From positions 12,394 through 76,393 of the IMG/VR virus record IMGVR_UViG_3300046792_000213: a DNA stretch of 64,000 nt; one strand, 5' to 3'. The stretch's first letter is position 1. Each line of letters starts with the position of its first letter. This document shows, one piece after another, positions 10,313-60,827 of the stretch. This DNA comes from a virus. Under the pieces are notes generated by a model. It had not been told where the DNA came from and did not search any database. It worked only from the letters and a program-made list of their open reading frames with translations. The position numbers and the translations under genes are program-made.

Positions 10313-13300
10313 TTATCGCTTGTAGGCCGGGTACGTTGTCGAGTTGCGGCGTGCCCGGTTGAGGTAGCCCTGCTCGACGATGTCCACGAGGGTCCGTTCG
10401 CTGACCACGGACCCCTGGACGGTGTAGTGGTTGTGGACGACCGTGGGACCGCCGGCCATGCCGCCCCCGGCGAGAGCGGCGCCCTGCTGGACGGCCATGG
10501 CCATTCCCTGAGCGGCGACGACGGCGTGTTTCGTGGATCGGTTGATGCCGACCGCCATGCCTTGTGCGGTGTAGTCACCGAGCTGCGCCATGACTGCAGA
10601 CGGGGACCGGATACCGAGCGCTTTCTTGATCGCCGCCTGCATGGACTTGGCGATCTTCAGCATCTGCGCCTCGATCGCCTTCTCCTGCGACTGCAGCCCC
10701 TGCACGAGGCCCTGTGCAGACTTGATGCCCGCCCCGTACATCGCGTCGGCAACCGCACTGCCCGTGGCGTTCGCGGAGGACTGCATGCCCTTCTGCAGGT
10801 TGTTCAGCTCGGTGATCGTGCCCTTCGACGCGCCCATCAGAGCGGCAGTAGTCGCACCACCCTGGTCCACACCGGACGCGGCGATCTGCGCGATCAGATC
10901 CGACCGAAGCCCGGCCTTTTGCAGGGCACGCAACTGCGCGGCGAACTGGCTCGCTTTCGCGGCCTGGTCGCGCATGTTGTTCACGACGTCCTGCGAGGTC
11001 AGAGCGAACCCTGCCTGCGGGGCGGTCGTGATGATCGACGCGTTCTGCATGATCCCGGACGCGATCGAGTCCCGCTCCGACGCCCACGACTTCAGCAACG
11101 CCGCGAGCTTCGACTGGGCCGCTTTCAGCTTGCCCGCGACCGAATCCCGGTCGGCGGCCAGTTTGAGAAGCGCCGCGTTGTCCTTCGCGACGGCCTTCTG
11201 CAGGCCCTTGTGGCTGCTGCCGAAGTCCGTGTAGAGCATGCTCGCGATGCGCTTCGTCGCGGCCTTCACACTGGCCGTGGACCCGGTAAGGCCCTGCACA
11301 AGCCCGGTCATCACGTAGGCACCAAGCGCCTTGAACTTCTTCGAAGGCGAGGCAATGCCCAGCTCGTCGGAGAACGCCGCGGTGGCCGCCTTCGCCATGG
11401 CAATAGCAGCGGCCATCACGTCCGGCTGGCCCCCGGCGATCCCTCGGGCCACGCCGGCGGCGACGTTCGAGCCGGCGCCGACCGCCGCCTGTCCCCAGGA
11501 AACCGAGCCGCCGAGGATGCCCACGGTCTCCGTGGCGATCTGCCGGGAGCGGGCGTTGCGCGTGTGAGGGATATACGACTCGTCGGGCCCCTCGCCCCAC
11601 AGGATGTTGGAGCCGCCCTTGGCCATCATCGCCGGGCGGCCGAAGCCACCCTCAGCCATGCGCCGGACGCCACCGGAGACCACGGCGCCTGTGGCGTACC
11701 TGCCGCCGCCGGGCACCGCCACACCCGACCCGGACGCGATGCCCTTGTACACGACGTTGACGTGCACGGTTTTCCCGGACACCGACGCGATGGCCCGCTT
11801 CGCTGCGGCAATCTTGTTCTGCAGGTCAACGATGTCGCCACGGATGGACGTCTGCTTCGACGCCGGGGTGTTCCCCAGGTCGGCCTTGGCCTTCTTCAGC
11901 TTCGCCTGAAGGTCAGACAGGTCACCCTTGAGGAAGGCGGTCTTGTCGGGAGCCTTCAGGATCTGATCGGAGAGCTTCTTCGCCTGGTCCCGCGTGAGGC
12001 CCATGGCGTCCGCGGCGCTGATCAGCTTGGCGCGGCCCTGCTCGTAGATCCCCGACACTGTGGACCACGACTTGCCCTGATCCCGGGCGGCAGCAGCGTC
12101 CGCGTCCGCGGCGGCAGCCAGATCCGCCAGAGGCTTGTACGCGTCCCGCGCCGCCTGGGAGTTCAGGTCGATCTGCCCGTGCACCATTTTCAGTGCACTG
12201 TGGTGGCCCTTGATGGCCGCGGTGGTGTCATCAATCGCCTGCTGGAAATCAGCCTCCGCGGACAGGCCAGCCCGGTTCACGTCATTCAAAGCCTGGATGG
12301 ACTGGCGCAATCCGTCGGCGGACTGCTTCTGTGCGTCGAGGTCCCTCTGCACGGACTGCGCCTGCTGCCCGAACATGCCCATCGAGTCGGCAACAAGATC
12401 CTGCTCGAACTTGGCGTCGGCCAGAGCGCTTTTGTAGCCGTCGAGGCGGTCTGTCAGTTCCTTGGTGGGCTGCCCCGACTTCTTGACCTCGGCGGACAGC
12501 TTCGACACAGCGGCGGCGGCCAGGTCCGCCTTCCCGCCCTGCACCAACTGGGCCAGGGCGTCGTCGACTGCGTCGATGTCCTTCTTGGCGTCGTTCCACG
12601 AATTCGACTTCTTGTGCCCAAGGGTGAAGATCGAATTCATAGTGTCGTTGAAGTGGTCCATCTTGGACCCGCCACCGTTGAGGCGGTCGATGGCGCTGTT
12701 CAGCTTGTCGAAGTCGCCACCGAAGGCCACGGCCGCCTCGCCGGAGACCTTCCCGGTGTGGCCCAGTTCGCCCAGGGATGTGGTCAGCTTGTCGACGTCC
12801 GGGGCTTTCTTGCCCGAGGACATCAGCGAGTTCACGACCAGTACGAGCGCGCCGATCGCAGCAACAGCGCCGCCGATCTTTGCCCCGGTCGACAGCGACC
12901 CAATAGCCGCCCGCACGCCGGCGACACCACCACCAGCAGTGGTGGATGCGACCCGCAGTGCGGTCAGTCGAGTGGACAGAGCCGTAATAGAGCCCGCCAC
13001 GGTGGTGATCCCGGCAGAGGTCAGCTTGATCAGCTTAAGCGCGGTGTAGGCCTGCAAGGTGCGGGCGATGAACGACACGGGCAGCGAGGCGACCAGGGCG
13101 GCCGTGGCGTTGACCAAGGACAGGACGCCCGGCCCCGCCTCAGCAGCACCCTTGAAGACCTGCATCACGGCCCTCGCGATGTTCTCCAGAGTCTTCCGGA
13201 CCGCCGGCCCCTGATGCTCCGCGTACTTCATGAAGTCCGCGACCGGACCGTTGGCCTTCCCCTCAGACAGGACGCGGCTGAAGTGGATGACGTCATCCAC

Positions 13301-14616: not shown

Positions 14617-15057
14617 TTACATGGCTCGGCTCCACGCCTCGACGTACAGGCGCCGCAGGTCATCGCGGGCATCCCGCACGGTGGGCGCCAGGTAGGGGCG
14701 CGGCGGCAGGGTTACTGAGTGGTTGCGGCCAGCGCGCCCGCCGAGTTCCTGAATCCGGGAGTACACGGCGGTCGGCCCCAGCCGCCCGCTGAAACCGGTG
14801 CCGGTGGGGATCGGGCCGGTGGGGGTCAGCGACCCGCGGAGGTGCCCGCTGATCCGCGCCGGGGGCTCACCCGGTGGCGACGGAGTCGGGGTGCGGGGCG
14901 GGTGGTAGTAGCGGGACAGCCTGCTGTGCGCCCGCCGCTGCAGCAGGGTCAGCCCGTCCTTGGTGGCCCGGCGGGTCGCGGACATGATCCGCTGCTCCAG
15001 GGCATCAATGGCGGCGGCGAAGTCGTCCACGCCGTCCACGTTGACGGTGACGTCCAC
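14617..15057 (-). CDS. HK97 gp10-like neck protein
   Basis: SPPGEPPARISGHLRGS...YSRIQELGG...PPRPYLAP. Confidence 0.8.
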   Translation of the reverse strand: MDVTVNVDGVDDFAAAIDALEQRIMSATRRATKDGLTLLQRRAHSRLSRYYHPPRTPTPSPPGEPPARISGHLRGSLTPTGPIPTGTGFSGRLGPTAVYSRIQELGGRAGRNHSVTLPPRPYLAPTVRDARDDLRRLYVEAWSRAM

Positions 15058-15060
15058 GGG

Positions 15061-15327
15061 TCACCTCCCGCCGGCGGCGGCCTGTCGCTCCGCTTCTTCC
15101 TGTGCTCGCAGGCGCAGGGTGACCTTGGCCGCATCCACGGCGCTGGCGTACCCGGGCAGGCGCATCATGACCCACACCGGCTGCTCGTCCACCTGGTTGG
15201 GTGTCCACCCGTACCGTTCGGCGAACCACCCGTACCGCCACGCCACCGTCTCAAACAGGGTCTCCGGGTGGTCACCGGGGATCGGGCGGCCTTCAAGGAC
15301 GGCTAGGACGCGGCGGCGCCCCCAGTA
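15061..15327 (-). CDS. Tail assembly chaperone, -1 frameshift extension (T part of GT)
   Basis: Open -1 frame YWGRRRVLAVLEG...AERYGWTPNQVDEQP overlapping the chaperone 3' end. Confidence 0.75.
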   Translation of the reverse strand, partial: YWGRRRVLAVLEGRPIPGDHPETLFETVAWRYGWFAERYGWTPNQVDEQPVWVMMRLPGYASAVDAAKVTLRLRAQEEAERQAAAGGR

Positions 15328-15674
15328 GGGGACGCCGGGTCCGCCTGTGCTGCGGCGAGTGCCGCCGCATCCTCAGGCTCCGGATCCGACGGAAACAGCA
15401 GGTCTTCGGCAGGTTCGACAAGCTTCTTCAGCGCCTGGTAGTCGCGAATCTCCATCAGCCGCAGCGACTCCGGGGCCTTCAACGGGACCGGCAGCGGCAG
15501 CGACCAGTTCAGGACGAGGACGCCGATGAGGGCATTCCTCATCTGACGGATCATCGCGCCGCCCTCTCCGGTCATGGCGTCCTGGATGTCCATCTGGTCG
15601 CCGGCGCGGAGCTCGGTGGGGTCGCGGAGCTCGACCCACGAGTCCGGAGAGGCGAGTGCGTGGCGCTGAGCCAT
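15303..15674 (-). CDS. Tail assembly chaperone (G)
   Basis: Between tail tube and TMP; VLNWSL motif; ends DPASPT. Confidence 0.8.
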   Translation of the reverse strand: MAQRHALASPDSWVELRDPTELRAGDQMDIQDAMTGEGGAMIRQMRNALIGVLVLNWSLPLPVPLKAPESLRLMEIRDYQALKKLVEPAEDLLFPSDPEPEDAAALAAAQADPASPTGGAAAS

Positions 15675-23076: not shown

Positions 23077-25710
23077 TCAGGCGGGCATCGGGTAGCACCG
23101 GCAGTTGGGATGCGCCGGCGGGGCATCGGACCCGTCCGGCCACGCGTCGCCGATGGCGCGGGCTCCAGCAGTTGCGTTGGCGGTGCAGACCGGGCAGGCA
23201 TCGGGCTCAGCCACCCACCGCCACTCCGTGATCCCCGCGGCGGTGTACTCCTGGCGGGCGGCCTCACTGGTTGCCCGGGTGAGTTCGGTGAGGGCGACTC
23301 GGCGTGCCCATGCGTCGTCCGTCAGGGCGTCACGCAGTAGGTCGGCGAGTTCCTCGCGGCCAAGGCCCCGGCGCTTTGCGTCGGCCAGGATGCGTGCGAA
23401 CGTCTGCAGGCGCCTGTCTGCGATGGGGGGTATGCGGGTCTTGCTGTCGTCGAGGAACGCGGCGAGAGCGTCGGCCATGACCGTGGTGAGCCGTTGCCGG
23501 GTGGTGGCGTCGTCTCCGATGGTCCAGTTGAACTCAGCCCTGGTGCCGGTGGTAACCGCATGTGCGGAAATCGCACCGATGACCCAACCCTCGGACCAAA
23601 TCCCGGCGAGCACCGCCGCAAGAGGTGCGGTGAGGCTGACCCCTTGGGCCACGAGGAACGCCACAGCCACAGCCAAGGCGGCGTCGGGGTCGCCCTCCTG
23701 TGGTGGCACTACCGCTTCCTGTGCGATCCACCGTTCGGCCAGTTGATCAGCGTCAACGGTCGAGGCGACGTCGCTACTGAGGCGGTCGGCCCACAGGGTG
23801 GCGGTGTCCTGGTCGCGGTCCCATCCGGGCCAGGCGACCGCATCACCTTTTGGGTCAGCGCTCACCCCGTCGGGCGGGGCGAAGACCACGTGTTGATCGT
23901 TCAGGCCCGTCGGTGCATCGGCCTTGGTAACGGTCTGGAACTGGAAAGGCCGCTTCGGTGCTGGGTTCTTGCGTGCCCAGCGGCGGTAGGAGGCGAGTTC
24001 GGTTTTGACCTGCTCGGCCCGGTCGTCGTCCTCCTCTGGGTCCTTGGTGTTCGTGTCCGGGCCGTGGGGGGCGTCGAGGACACCGTCGGCGTCCGTGTCG
24101 GCCTGTGGCGGCCCAACGATCGGCCCCACCACTTCCCCGGCCGGGGCCAGGTCTGATGCTCCCGCGAGGAACACCAGGCCGCGTGCTGTACGCACCACAG
24201 GCATGTCCGCTTCGGGAAAGTCGAACCTTGGGAGACCCATGCGGTCGCGGTCTTCGTTGTAGGTCATCCGGCCGGCCTCAACGCGGGCTGCGGCGACCTC
24301 ATCGGCCGCGGCGGCGTCTTCCTCTTCGAGACCGAGGAAGCGGATCTCCAGCTCGGACGGCATGCCAAGGTGCTTGCGGGAGATGTCCGTGAGGAGCTGC
24401 TGCAACCAGCGCAGTGTGGGCAGCGTGCCCTTGCGCTGCTGCACGTCGGCTTGGCCCTCGTGCCACCCGCTGCTGCCGAGGCCGCCCTGCTCGGTGAACC
24501 CGAGTTCGGCGATGGTCACGTCGAAGTGGGCGGCCATGAGCTTGACCAGGAACAGGTCGTACTCGGGCTTGTACCGTTCGGCGACGTCCTGCTCGGTGTT
24601 GATGTCGAAGCCGGGCGGCAGGACCCGCATCCGGTGCCGGGCCGCGGTGCCACCGGAGTAGGTGTCGTTGAGGTTCGTCTCGTACTCAAGGACCTGCGAC
24701 GGGGTCCACCCGGTCTGCCCATTCTGGGTGATCCATCCGGCGGGCAGGGTGCCCTCGGTGTACTCGTCACGGATCCATTTGCGGCGGCGCAGCCACACGT
24801 CGACGTCTTCGAGGGCCTGCTCGACGGCGGAGTACCCGTAGGGGGTGTGGGCGCGGACGTTGCGCCGCTTGTAGACGAGCCGGTCGGAGCGGTACCCGTT
24901 GAGGACGTTCCCGTCGGCGTCGGTGTCCGCGATGAACTCCCCGCGGGGGAAGCCCCACAGGATCTGCTGGAATGCCGGATTCGGGGGCGCCGGCCGGCCG
25001 CCGCGGTGATCCCGCAGCGGCTTGATGGTGGACCCGTCGAGGATCTCCAGGGCGTACAGGTCCCCGCCGTAGGTCAGCCGCGGGTAAATCGCAACCGCGT
25101 CGAGCACCAGGTGCTCTTCGAGGAGCTTCGAGCACCAGTCGCCGAAGGACTCGTCCTGCCCGGGGTCGGGCTGCTCCCAGAAGCGGGTGCACCGGGCGAT
25201 GTCCGGTGACAGGCGCTCGCGTAGGGCGCCCTCCACCTCGGAGCGGGGCTTGCCCGTGGTGTGCTGGGCCGCCTCCACGGCCTGCTTGGTGATGGTGACT
25301 GCCCAGTCCAGGCCGGCCACCTCCGCTTTGCGGATCTCAATGCAGCGGCGGGGCAGCCCGCCGGCGTCGGCAGCGTCCCGCAGGACCTTCCACGGCACCA
25401 ACCGGTCGCCAGTCAGTCCGATGTTGCTGGTGACTGGGTATTCGTTGAAGCGGGGCTCGGGGCGGCCGGTGTCCGGGCGGGGCGGGTCGATCGCCGCCGG
25501 GAACAGGGGCACGCCCGGCCCGAAGGCGACCTGCGGGTCGGTGCGGGGCAGCGGTACAGACACGCCGGTGACCTGTTGGCCGCCGCGGGCCGAAGCGTTG
25601 GCGATCGAGGCGACCTGCTCTGCGGTGAACGTCGCAACGGGCGTCGTCGCCGGGCTGATCGCCTTCGTGATCTCGGGGATGCGCCGGAACAGGTCACGCC
25701 AGCGAGCCAC
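23077..25710 (-). CDS. Portal protein with in-frame MuF/gp7-like C-terminal domain
   Basis: Follows TerL; PYGYSAVEQ, MTYNEDR; C-terminal TELTRA...ACPVC...PPAHPNCRC. Confidence 0.9.
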   Translation of the reverse strand: MARWRDLFRRIPEITKAISPATTPVATFTAEQVASIANASARGGQQVTGVSVPLPRTDPQVAFGPGVPLFPAAIDPPRPDTGRPEPRFNEYPVTSNIGLTGDRLVPWKVLRDAADAGGLPRRCIEIRKAEVAGLDWAVTITKQAVEAAQHTTGKPRSEVEGALRERLSPDIARCTRFWEQPDPGQDESFGDWCSKLLEEHLVLDAVAIYPRLTYGGDLYALEILDGSTIKPLRDHRGGRPAPPNPAFQQILWGFPRGEFIADTDADGNVLNGYRSDRLVYKRRNVRAHTPYGYSAVEQALEDVDVWLRRRKWIRDEYTEGTLPAGWITQNGQTGWTPSQVLEYETNLNDTYSGGTAARHRMRVLPPGFDINTEQDVAERYKPEYDLFLVKLMAAHFDVTIAELGFTEQGGLGSSGWHEGQADVQQRKGTLPTLRWLQQLLTDISRKHLGMPSELEIRFLGLEEEDAAAADEVAAARVEAGRMTYNEDRDRMGLPRFDFPEADMPVVRTARGLVFLAGASDLAPAGEVVGPIVGPPQADTDADGVLDAPHGPDTNTKDPEEDDDRAEQVKTELASYRRWARKNPAPKRPFQFQTVTKADAPTGLNDQHVVFAPPDGVSADPKGDAVAWPGWDRDQDTATLWADRLSSDVASTVDADQLAERWIAQEAVVPPQEGDPDAALAVAVAFLVAQGVSLTAPLAAVLAGIWSEGWVIGAISAHAVTTGTRAEFNWTIGDDATTRQRLTTVMADALAAFLDDSKTRIPPIADRRLQTFARILADAKRRGLGREELADLLRDALTDDAWARRVALTELTRATSEAARQEYTAAGITEWRWVAEPDACPVCTANATAGARAIGDAWPDGSDAPPAHPNCRCYPMPA

Positions 25711-60725: not shown

Positions 60726-60827
60726 GGCGTCCGCCTCATTCCTTCGTGTTTTGGGTGGTGAGGCGCGGTGCCCAGGGGGCGGCCAGTCGGCTAGGGCTGG
60801 TCAGCCCCGCACCACGCAGGGGTGGGG

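Follow-up and report, generated by a model that had tools for sequence, protein, structure and literature searches.

A candidate dnaX-like -1 frameshift signal at the junction of portal and MuF in a Streptomyces-type phage and its relatives

Described recoding systems and the portal-MuF gene

The closest described counterpart of the element analyzed here is the frameshift cassette of the Escherichia coli dnaX gene (tau/gamma). There, a Shine-Dalgarno (SD)-like element about 10 nt upstream, a slippery heptamer of the form X_XXY_YYZ with tRNA-Lys in the A site, and a downstream stem-loop are combined with a -1 stop after one codon; the slipped product is shorter and lacks the C-terminal domains, and both products enter one oligomer. 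A similar arrangement, with a predicted hairpin in the place of the stem-loop, is seen at the junction between the portal and MuF parts of a single gene in a 64,000-nucleotide stretch of viral DNA (positions 12,394 to 76,393 of the IMG/VR virus record IMGVR_UViG_3300046792_000213), referred to below in its full length as the window. Based on comparison with related loci, we consider it highly likely that a programmed -1 frameshift cassette organized like that of dnaX lies at this junction, and the gene very probably makes portal both with and without MuF. For the portal, too, both products would be expected to join one oligomer. The differences from dnaX are that the slippery sequence is C_CCA_AAA here and A_AAA_AAG there, that the host gene encodes a virion protein of phages of high-GC actinobacteria, and that relatives of the portal-MuF gene appear to use the cassette with the opposite polarity as well, the slip then extending the protein.

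MuF-family proteins such as gp7 of phage SPP1, whose portal is gp6, are found in association with the portal at a low copy number per capsid. The two SPP1 proteins are separate products joined non-covalently, whereas in the gene described here recoding of a covalent fusion would set the dosage. In phage structural operons, a comparison is offered by the -1 frameshift of the lambda G/GT type in tail assembly chaperone genes (Xu, Hendrix & Duda 2004, as cited in PMC7302621), which shares with our locus a conserved -1 slip that gives two proteins with a common N-terminus in a set ratio. It differs in that the slip in the window would truncate rather than extend the protein, and in that the genes concerned are portal and MuF, not tail chaperones. 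Some relatives of the portal-MuF gene (L026, L028, and others), in which the two parts are split between frames, would work in the lambda manner.

Portal-MuF fusion genes are known in actinobacteriophages (Microbacterium clusters EA and EB, PMC7302621). These fusions and gene 3 of the Arthrobacter phage Sonali have the domain architecture of the window's gene and are annotated as one coding sequence (CDS), but no frameshift or second product is described for them in the literature. In the library of papers that was searched, which is incomplete, no description was found of frameshifting within portal genes or at the point where portal and MuF meet, and in the PRFect study MuF-like genes are listed among the "false positives" and not analyzed there. 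Programmed -1 frameshifting and portal-MuF fusions are each known, and it is the slip signal at the portal-MuF junction, for which no paper was found, that appears to be new.

The phage is of the Streptomyces type, and the gene is a head gene that joins portal and MuF. It was delimited from its open reading frame (ORF), profile matches, and homologues, and runs on the minus strand at 23077..25710, where the 0 frame encodes an 877-aa fusion. The head module has the usual order, with the large terminase gene followed by the portal-MuF gene and then by a protease-like gene. In Pfam, Phage_Mu_F (PF04233) is matched at residues 772–873 with 35.9 bits, above the gathering cutoff of 29.6, and Phage_portal (PF04860) is matched weakly at residues 216–492 (29.8 bits, below the cutoff of 39.1). 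A match to PHROG 2662, "portal protein", extends over residues 70–873 (E 4e-85), the profile covering the entire fusion, and about 600 homologous proteins of similar, full length were found, mostly in Streptomyces prophages. Some family members are longer, at 1200–1290 aa (P0052, P0084, P0114, and L018 with a 1215-codon ORF). P0084 also has PF14890 and therefore an extra inserted domain, and in L018 the additional length sits before the heptamer (codon 960).

An AlphaFold2 model of the 877-aa protein gave a predicted local distance difference test (pLDDT) score below 50 for residues 587–623 and of about 90 for residues 630–877. This pattern places the heptamer (codons 619–621) at the end of a disordered linker, right before the folded MuF domain. 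The portal part with its linker (residues 1–621; 23848..25710, minus strand), as defined by the model and by the ORF ends of the split relatives, would form the body of the short product. The MuF-like domain, defined by the model and PF04233, extends from the WPGWDRDQ motif to the C-terminus (residues 627–877; 23080..23832, minus strand) and would be found in the long product only.

The slippery heptamer and its flanking elements

A preliminary description of the window, made from the letters alone, had pointed to a perfect slippery heptamer built from rare codons, with an immediate stop in the -1 frame and a portal of about 622 aa as the outcome. The sequence is as described. Positions 23856-23842 of the minus strand read GAC CCA AAA GGT GAT in the frame of the 877-codon ORF, and the heptamer C_CCA_AAA within them (23848..23854, minus strand) is the sole in-frame X_XXY_YYZ of the portal-MuF gene. 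CCCAAAA has two occurrences over both strands of the 64-kb window (128 kb), the other being at 60755 on the minus strand (CACCACCCAAAACACGAAGGAATGA). Re-pairing after a slip is possible at both ribosomal sites, with AAA again in the A site and CCC in place of CCA in the P site. The -1 reading is CCC AAA AGG TGA, in which the TGA stop (23843..23845, minus strand) follows one codon past the slip, and the predicted product is a 622-aa portal ending in ...ADPKR. The -1 frame of the window does not run on into a downstream domain, as it would in an extension of the lambda G/GT type.

Related loci were collected from IMG/VR (42) and from GTDB genomes (15), and 41 sequences were left once redundancy above 95% identity had been removed. 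In 48 of the relatives CCCAAAA is invariant and in frame at the same junction, and these include sequences of only 32–44% identity from Pseudonocardiaceae and from unrelated-looking metagenome bins. Conservation of the heptamer at synonymous positions had been proposed as a check on the reading, and the codons passed it. Pro620 is CCA in 41 of 41 non-redundant homologues, as compared with about 5% CCA in the other 21 conserved proline columns, which are mostly CCG or CCC; Lys621 is likewise AAA in 41 of 41, as compared with about 9% AAA in the other conserved lysine columns, which are mostly AAG. The same columns bear out the claim that both codons are rare. Residues flanking the Pro-Lys pair are otherwise variable across the relatives. 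A distant fused relative of 34% identity (L035:2031-2140) has G_GGA_AAA instead of C_CCA_AAA at the junction; a perfect GCCCGG/CCGGGC hairpin begins 6 nt further on, and the -1 stop comes after 17 codons.

Upstream of the heptamer lies a conserved SD-like element, a feature absent from the preliminary description. In the window it reads GGGGTGA (23862..23868, minus strand) and was recognized by its anti-SD duplex energy and by its conservation across the family. The duplex energy of -11.1 kcal/mol falls in the top 4% of the gene, and an alignment of GGGGTGA with the whole anti-SD complement puts 10 nt between the end of its GGAGG-equivalent core and the heptamer. This is the spacing between SD-like element and heptamer in dnaX. 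An SD-like GGNGGTGA(T) is found about 10 nt upstream of the heptamer in all relatives except one. Averaged over the 41 relatives, the anti-SD energy has its peak in the 12-mer at -16..-5 relative to the heptamer, where it reaches -10.2 kcal/mol as compared with about -3.5 in the background, and in 29 of the 41 the upstream signal is within the top 5% of the relative's own gene. Because the codon phase of the motif differs between relatives (G GTG A in the window, GGT GAT in L016), it is conserved at the level of the RNA.

Folding of the downstream region predicts a GC-rich hairpin that starts 7–8 nt past the heptamer (23809..23840, minus strand) and has a GGTCGC/GCGACC core enclosing CCC/GGG. 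With its arms at 23839-23834 (GGTCGC) and 23816-23811 (GCGACC), this hairpin is the minimum-energy fold (-24 kcal/mol, z -2.26). The 45 nt that begin 5 nt past the heptamer have a z of -2.0 in the window and are stabler than 98.5% of the 45-nt segments of the gene, and in the 41 relatives the mean z of this region against other segments of the same genes is -1.4. The architecture of the hairpin varies by subgroup. In the window's group, GGTCGC(G) is paired with (C)GCGACC around the small CCC/GGG hairpin, and pairing is at 89% across the 11 closest relatives. Single-sequence minimum free energy folds of other subgroups have a 5' arm in the variable linker that pairs with the Trp-Pro-Gly codons, and the third base of the proline codon in WPGW is then found in G:C, T:A, C:G, or T:G pairs. 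The 3' arm of the hairpin encodes conserved residues.

The preliminary description had instead suggested a possible H-type pseudoknot, formed by GCGGTC (23841-23836) with GACCGC (23820-23815) and CCTGG (23834-23830) with CCAGG (23812-23808). All four segments are present in the window, but they are not kept as a pseudoknot in relatives. In stem 2, 8 of 11 close relatives lack pair 25-49, and among all 11 no pair covaries and nothing rises above the shuffle control. The simple hairpin therefore appears to be the better model.

Portal and MuF layouts in relatives and the rival explanations

Relatives of the window's gene differ in how portal and MuF are connected. In fused relatives (n = 35), which share the layout of the window, the 0 frame continues into MuF. 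A -1 stop follows the heptamer after 1–2 codons in 20 of 32 non-redundant fused relatives and within 16 codons in 29 of the 32, whereas only 4.7% of the other in-frame positions of the same genes have a -1 stop within 2 codons. From the heptamer, the -1 stop is a median of 2 codons away, as compared with 52 from other positions in these genes, and the early stops are formed by rare T-ending codons (e.g. GGT GA, GCT GA, CCT GA). In split relatives (n = 11), the portal frame ends 11–31 codons past the heptamer, and the WPGWDRDQD motif and the whole MuF domain are in the -1 frame. For four of these (L028, L029, L036, and L042), the MuF frame opens just 1–9 codons before the heptamer and has no start codon before the conserved motif. 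With MuF in the -1 frame and no start codon to serve it, split relatives would be able to make MuF only by slipping at the heptamer.

The heptamer is kept in fused and split relatives alike, and the portal tree requires at least four layout changes among fused, split, and separate genes, at least three of which involve the split form; the split L041, for example, is the sister of the fused L021. A third layout is found in the clade of L024, L025, and L027. Here a separate MuF gene, which has an SD of its own and starts at ATG or GTG, occupies the +1 frame and overlaps the 3' end of the portal gene by 110–122 nt. No heptamer is present at the junction in this clade, and the aligned Pro-Lys pair of L027 is encoded by CCG AAG. 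In L040, too, MuF is encoded separately, by a gene that has its own SD, starts at GTG or ATG, and overlaps the portal 3' end. At the position of the ancestral slip site, L027 (L027:4925-5046) reads CCCGAAGG, which appears to be the ribosome-binding site of MuF.

The invariant rare codons, the early -1 stops, and the dependence of split relatives on a slip support the reading of the junction as a frameshift site, and the comparison thus favors the dnaX-like outcome originally put forward, a 622-aa portal alongside an 877-aa portal-MuF protein. In this mechanism, tRNA-Pro on CCA and tRNA-Lys on AAA would re-pair to CCC and AAA. The anti-SD interaction at the rear of the ribosome and the hairpin ahead of it would both promote the slip. 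Ribosomes that slip would read AGG and then stop, giving the 622-aa portal without MuF, and those that stay in frame would make the 877-aa fusion, such that a single gene would supply two kinds of portal subunit. That slipping occurs, and at what rate, is something we infer from the sequences. Both products would presumably enter the dodecameric portal ring, and their ratio would then set the MuF copy number per capsid.

Several points weigh against this interpretation. Heptamers of the X_XXA_AAA type with A in the last position are not the most efficient class reported in E. coli. The hairpin shows no compensatory changes in the window and its 10 closest relatives, among which its pairs do not vary, and in 3 of the 41 relatives (L026, L053, and L057) the downstream fold is not unusually stable. 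Three deep-branching fused relatives have their -1 stop 32–52 codons on. Finally, one and the same signal would give opposite product ratios in fused and split relatives, unless close to 50% of ribosomes slip or the ratio is of little consequence. Such an efficiency is suggested solely by the repeated switching between the fused and split layouts, and it is a matter of speculation whether these flips reflect it or a ratio that is tolerated.

Could the conserved heptamer have a different origin or purpose? It may be a relic in the fused genes, from an ancestor that needed the slip before an indel fused the frames and left the signal useless in the window's lineage. The interconversion of fused and split layouts and the lack of covariation in the hairpin of the window's closest group would fit this scenario, but we regard it as improbable. 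Drift to CCG AAG would be expected of a relic, as has happened in L027, yet about 32 non-redundant fused genes, down to roughly 45–55% identity, all retain both rare codons and also the upstream SD-like motif, and the -1 stop within 1–2 codons in 20 of 32 of them stands against an expectation of 4.7%. Still less probable is that CCA AAA is conserved for slowing or pausing translation at the domain boundary, which would aid co-translational folding or assembly with the frame unchanged. Both codons are rare and lie at the boundary between linker and domain, and an internal SD-like motif can also pause ribosomes. A pause site would, however, leave unexplained the invariant C before CCA, the G_GGA_AAA of L035, the early -1 stops, and the split relatives with MuF in the -1 frame and no start codon.

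Similarly doubtful, and slightly more so, is that translation of a free MuF is initiated internally from the SD-like motif and the heptamer is incidental. The strong anti-SD match 5–16 nt upstream of the heptamer is what such initiation would call for, and the separate-gene clade does start MuF near this position with its own SD and GTG or ATG. From the SD-like motif to WPGW, however, the only in-frame ATG, GTG, or TTG of the window is the GTG that forms part of the SD-like motif. In split relatives, a stop codon interrupts the MuF frame after the SD-like motif and ahead of the heptamer, and no start codon precedes the conserved motif in that frame. Initiation would also not account for the synonymous conservation of the heptamer, and this candidate was rejected for want of an in-frame start. 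By far the least credible possibility is that the fused and split layouts are mimicked by indels from sequencing or assembly, or by slippage during transcription of the short C3/A4 runs. Homopolymer runs are error-prone, and the portal part of the relative L039 contains a further frame break. On the other hand, the layouts differ in the length and sequence of the linker (from heptamer to TGG there are 15 nt in the window and 5 nt in L041), each recurs in many independent contigs and isolate genomes, and an A4 run is too short for slippage by RNA polymerase. Each of the rivals thus fails on at least one of four observations: the startless MuF of split relatives, the early -1 stops, the G_GGA_AAA variant, and the disappearance of the rare codons in relatives that start MuF independently.

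As a separate observation on L039, a relative of lower GC, the extra frame break is at 1233, and A-rich runs are found close to the junction. The locus could be a decayed copy, or the contig could be error-prone.

Cultured phages, neighboring genes, and meaning for portal biology

Among GenBank phages, megablast with the portal-MuF gene gave no match, and tblastn gave only distant cultured relatives. The same cassette is found in two cultured Arthrobacter phages, Sonali (L058:4353-4420; MK411746 gene 3) and Mufasa8 (L059; MN586027 gene 3), at codon 738/739 of a portal-MuF gene of about 1000 aa that is annotated as a single CDS. In Sonali, an SD-like GGCGGTGGT (GGTGGTGGT in Mufasa8) is followed by CCCAAAA and then by a CCCTCC/GGAGGG hairpin, and the -1 stop comes after 9 codons. 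A search for further cultured relatives of Sonali returned Mufasa8 alone.

The tail chaperone pair of the window (15230-15345, minus strand) has no canonical X_XXY_YYZ heptamer. Its G-like ORF occupies 15303..15674, and the T-like part is in the -1 frame, which is open to 15061; a G-run (ACT GGG GGC) is the sole possible slip site in the overlap. Between this pair and the 1423-aa tape measure gene lies a gene for a 146-aa protein resembling tail-completion or Neck1 proteins (PHROG 5; 14617-15057, minus strand), which is an unusual position for it.

Taking the family as a whole, we tentatively suggest, with somewhat less than even confidence, that the combination of SD-like element, heptamer, and hairpin is a recoding switch of reversible polarity, which either cuts MuF off a fused gene or adds MuF to the portal. 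Flips between the two would be near-neutral at about 50% slipping, the portal ring would be mixed with roughly half of its subunits carrying MuF, and the cassette would be one branch of a general and so far unannotated class of portal-MuF recoding in tailed phages. The fused and split relatives provide a natural series in which one recoding signal would serve both polarities, and C_CCA_AAA is a candidate -1 signal for high-GC bacteria.

Portal genes are currently treated as single-product. If the frameshift reading is true, hundreds of portal-MuF genes of actinophages and prophages, including those of cultured SEA-PHAGES isolates, are annotated with one product instead of two. A ratio like that of Gag to Gag-Pol, or of tau to gamma, would then be encoded inside the portal gene, and this offers a concrete and testable answer to the question of what sets the copy number of minor head proteins of the MuF/gp7 type at the portal vertex.

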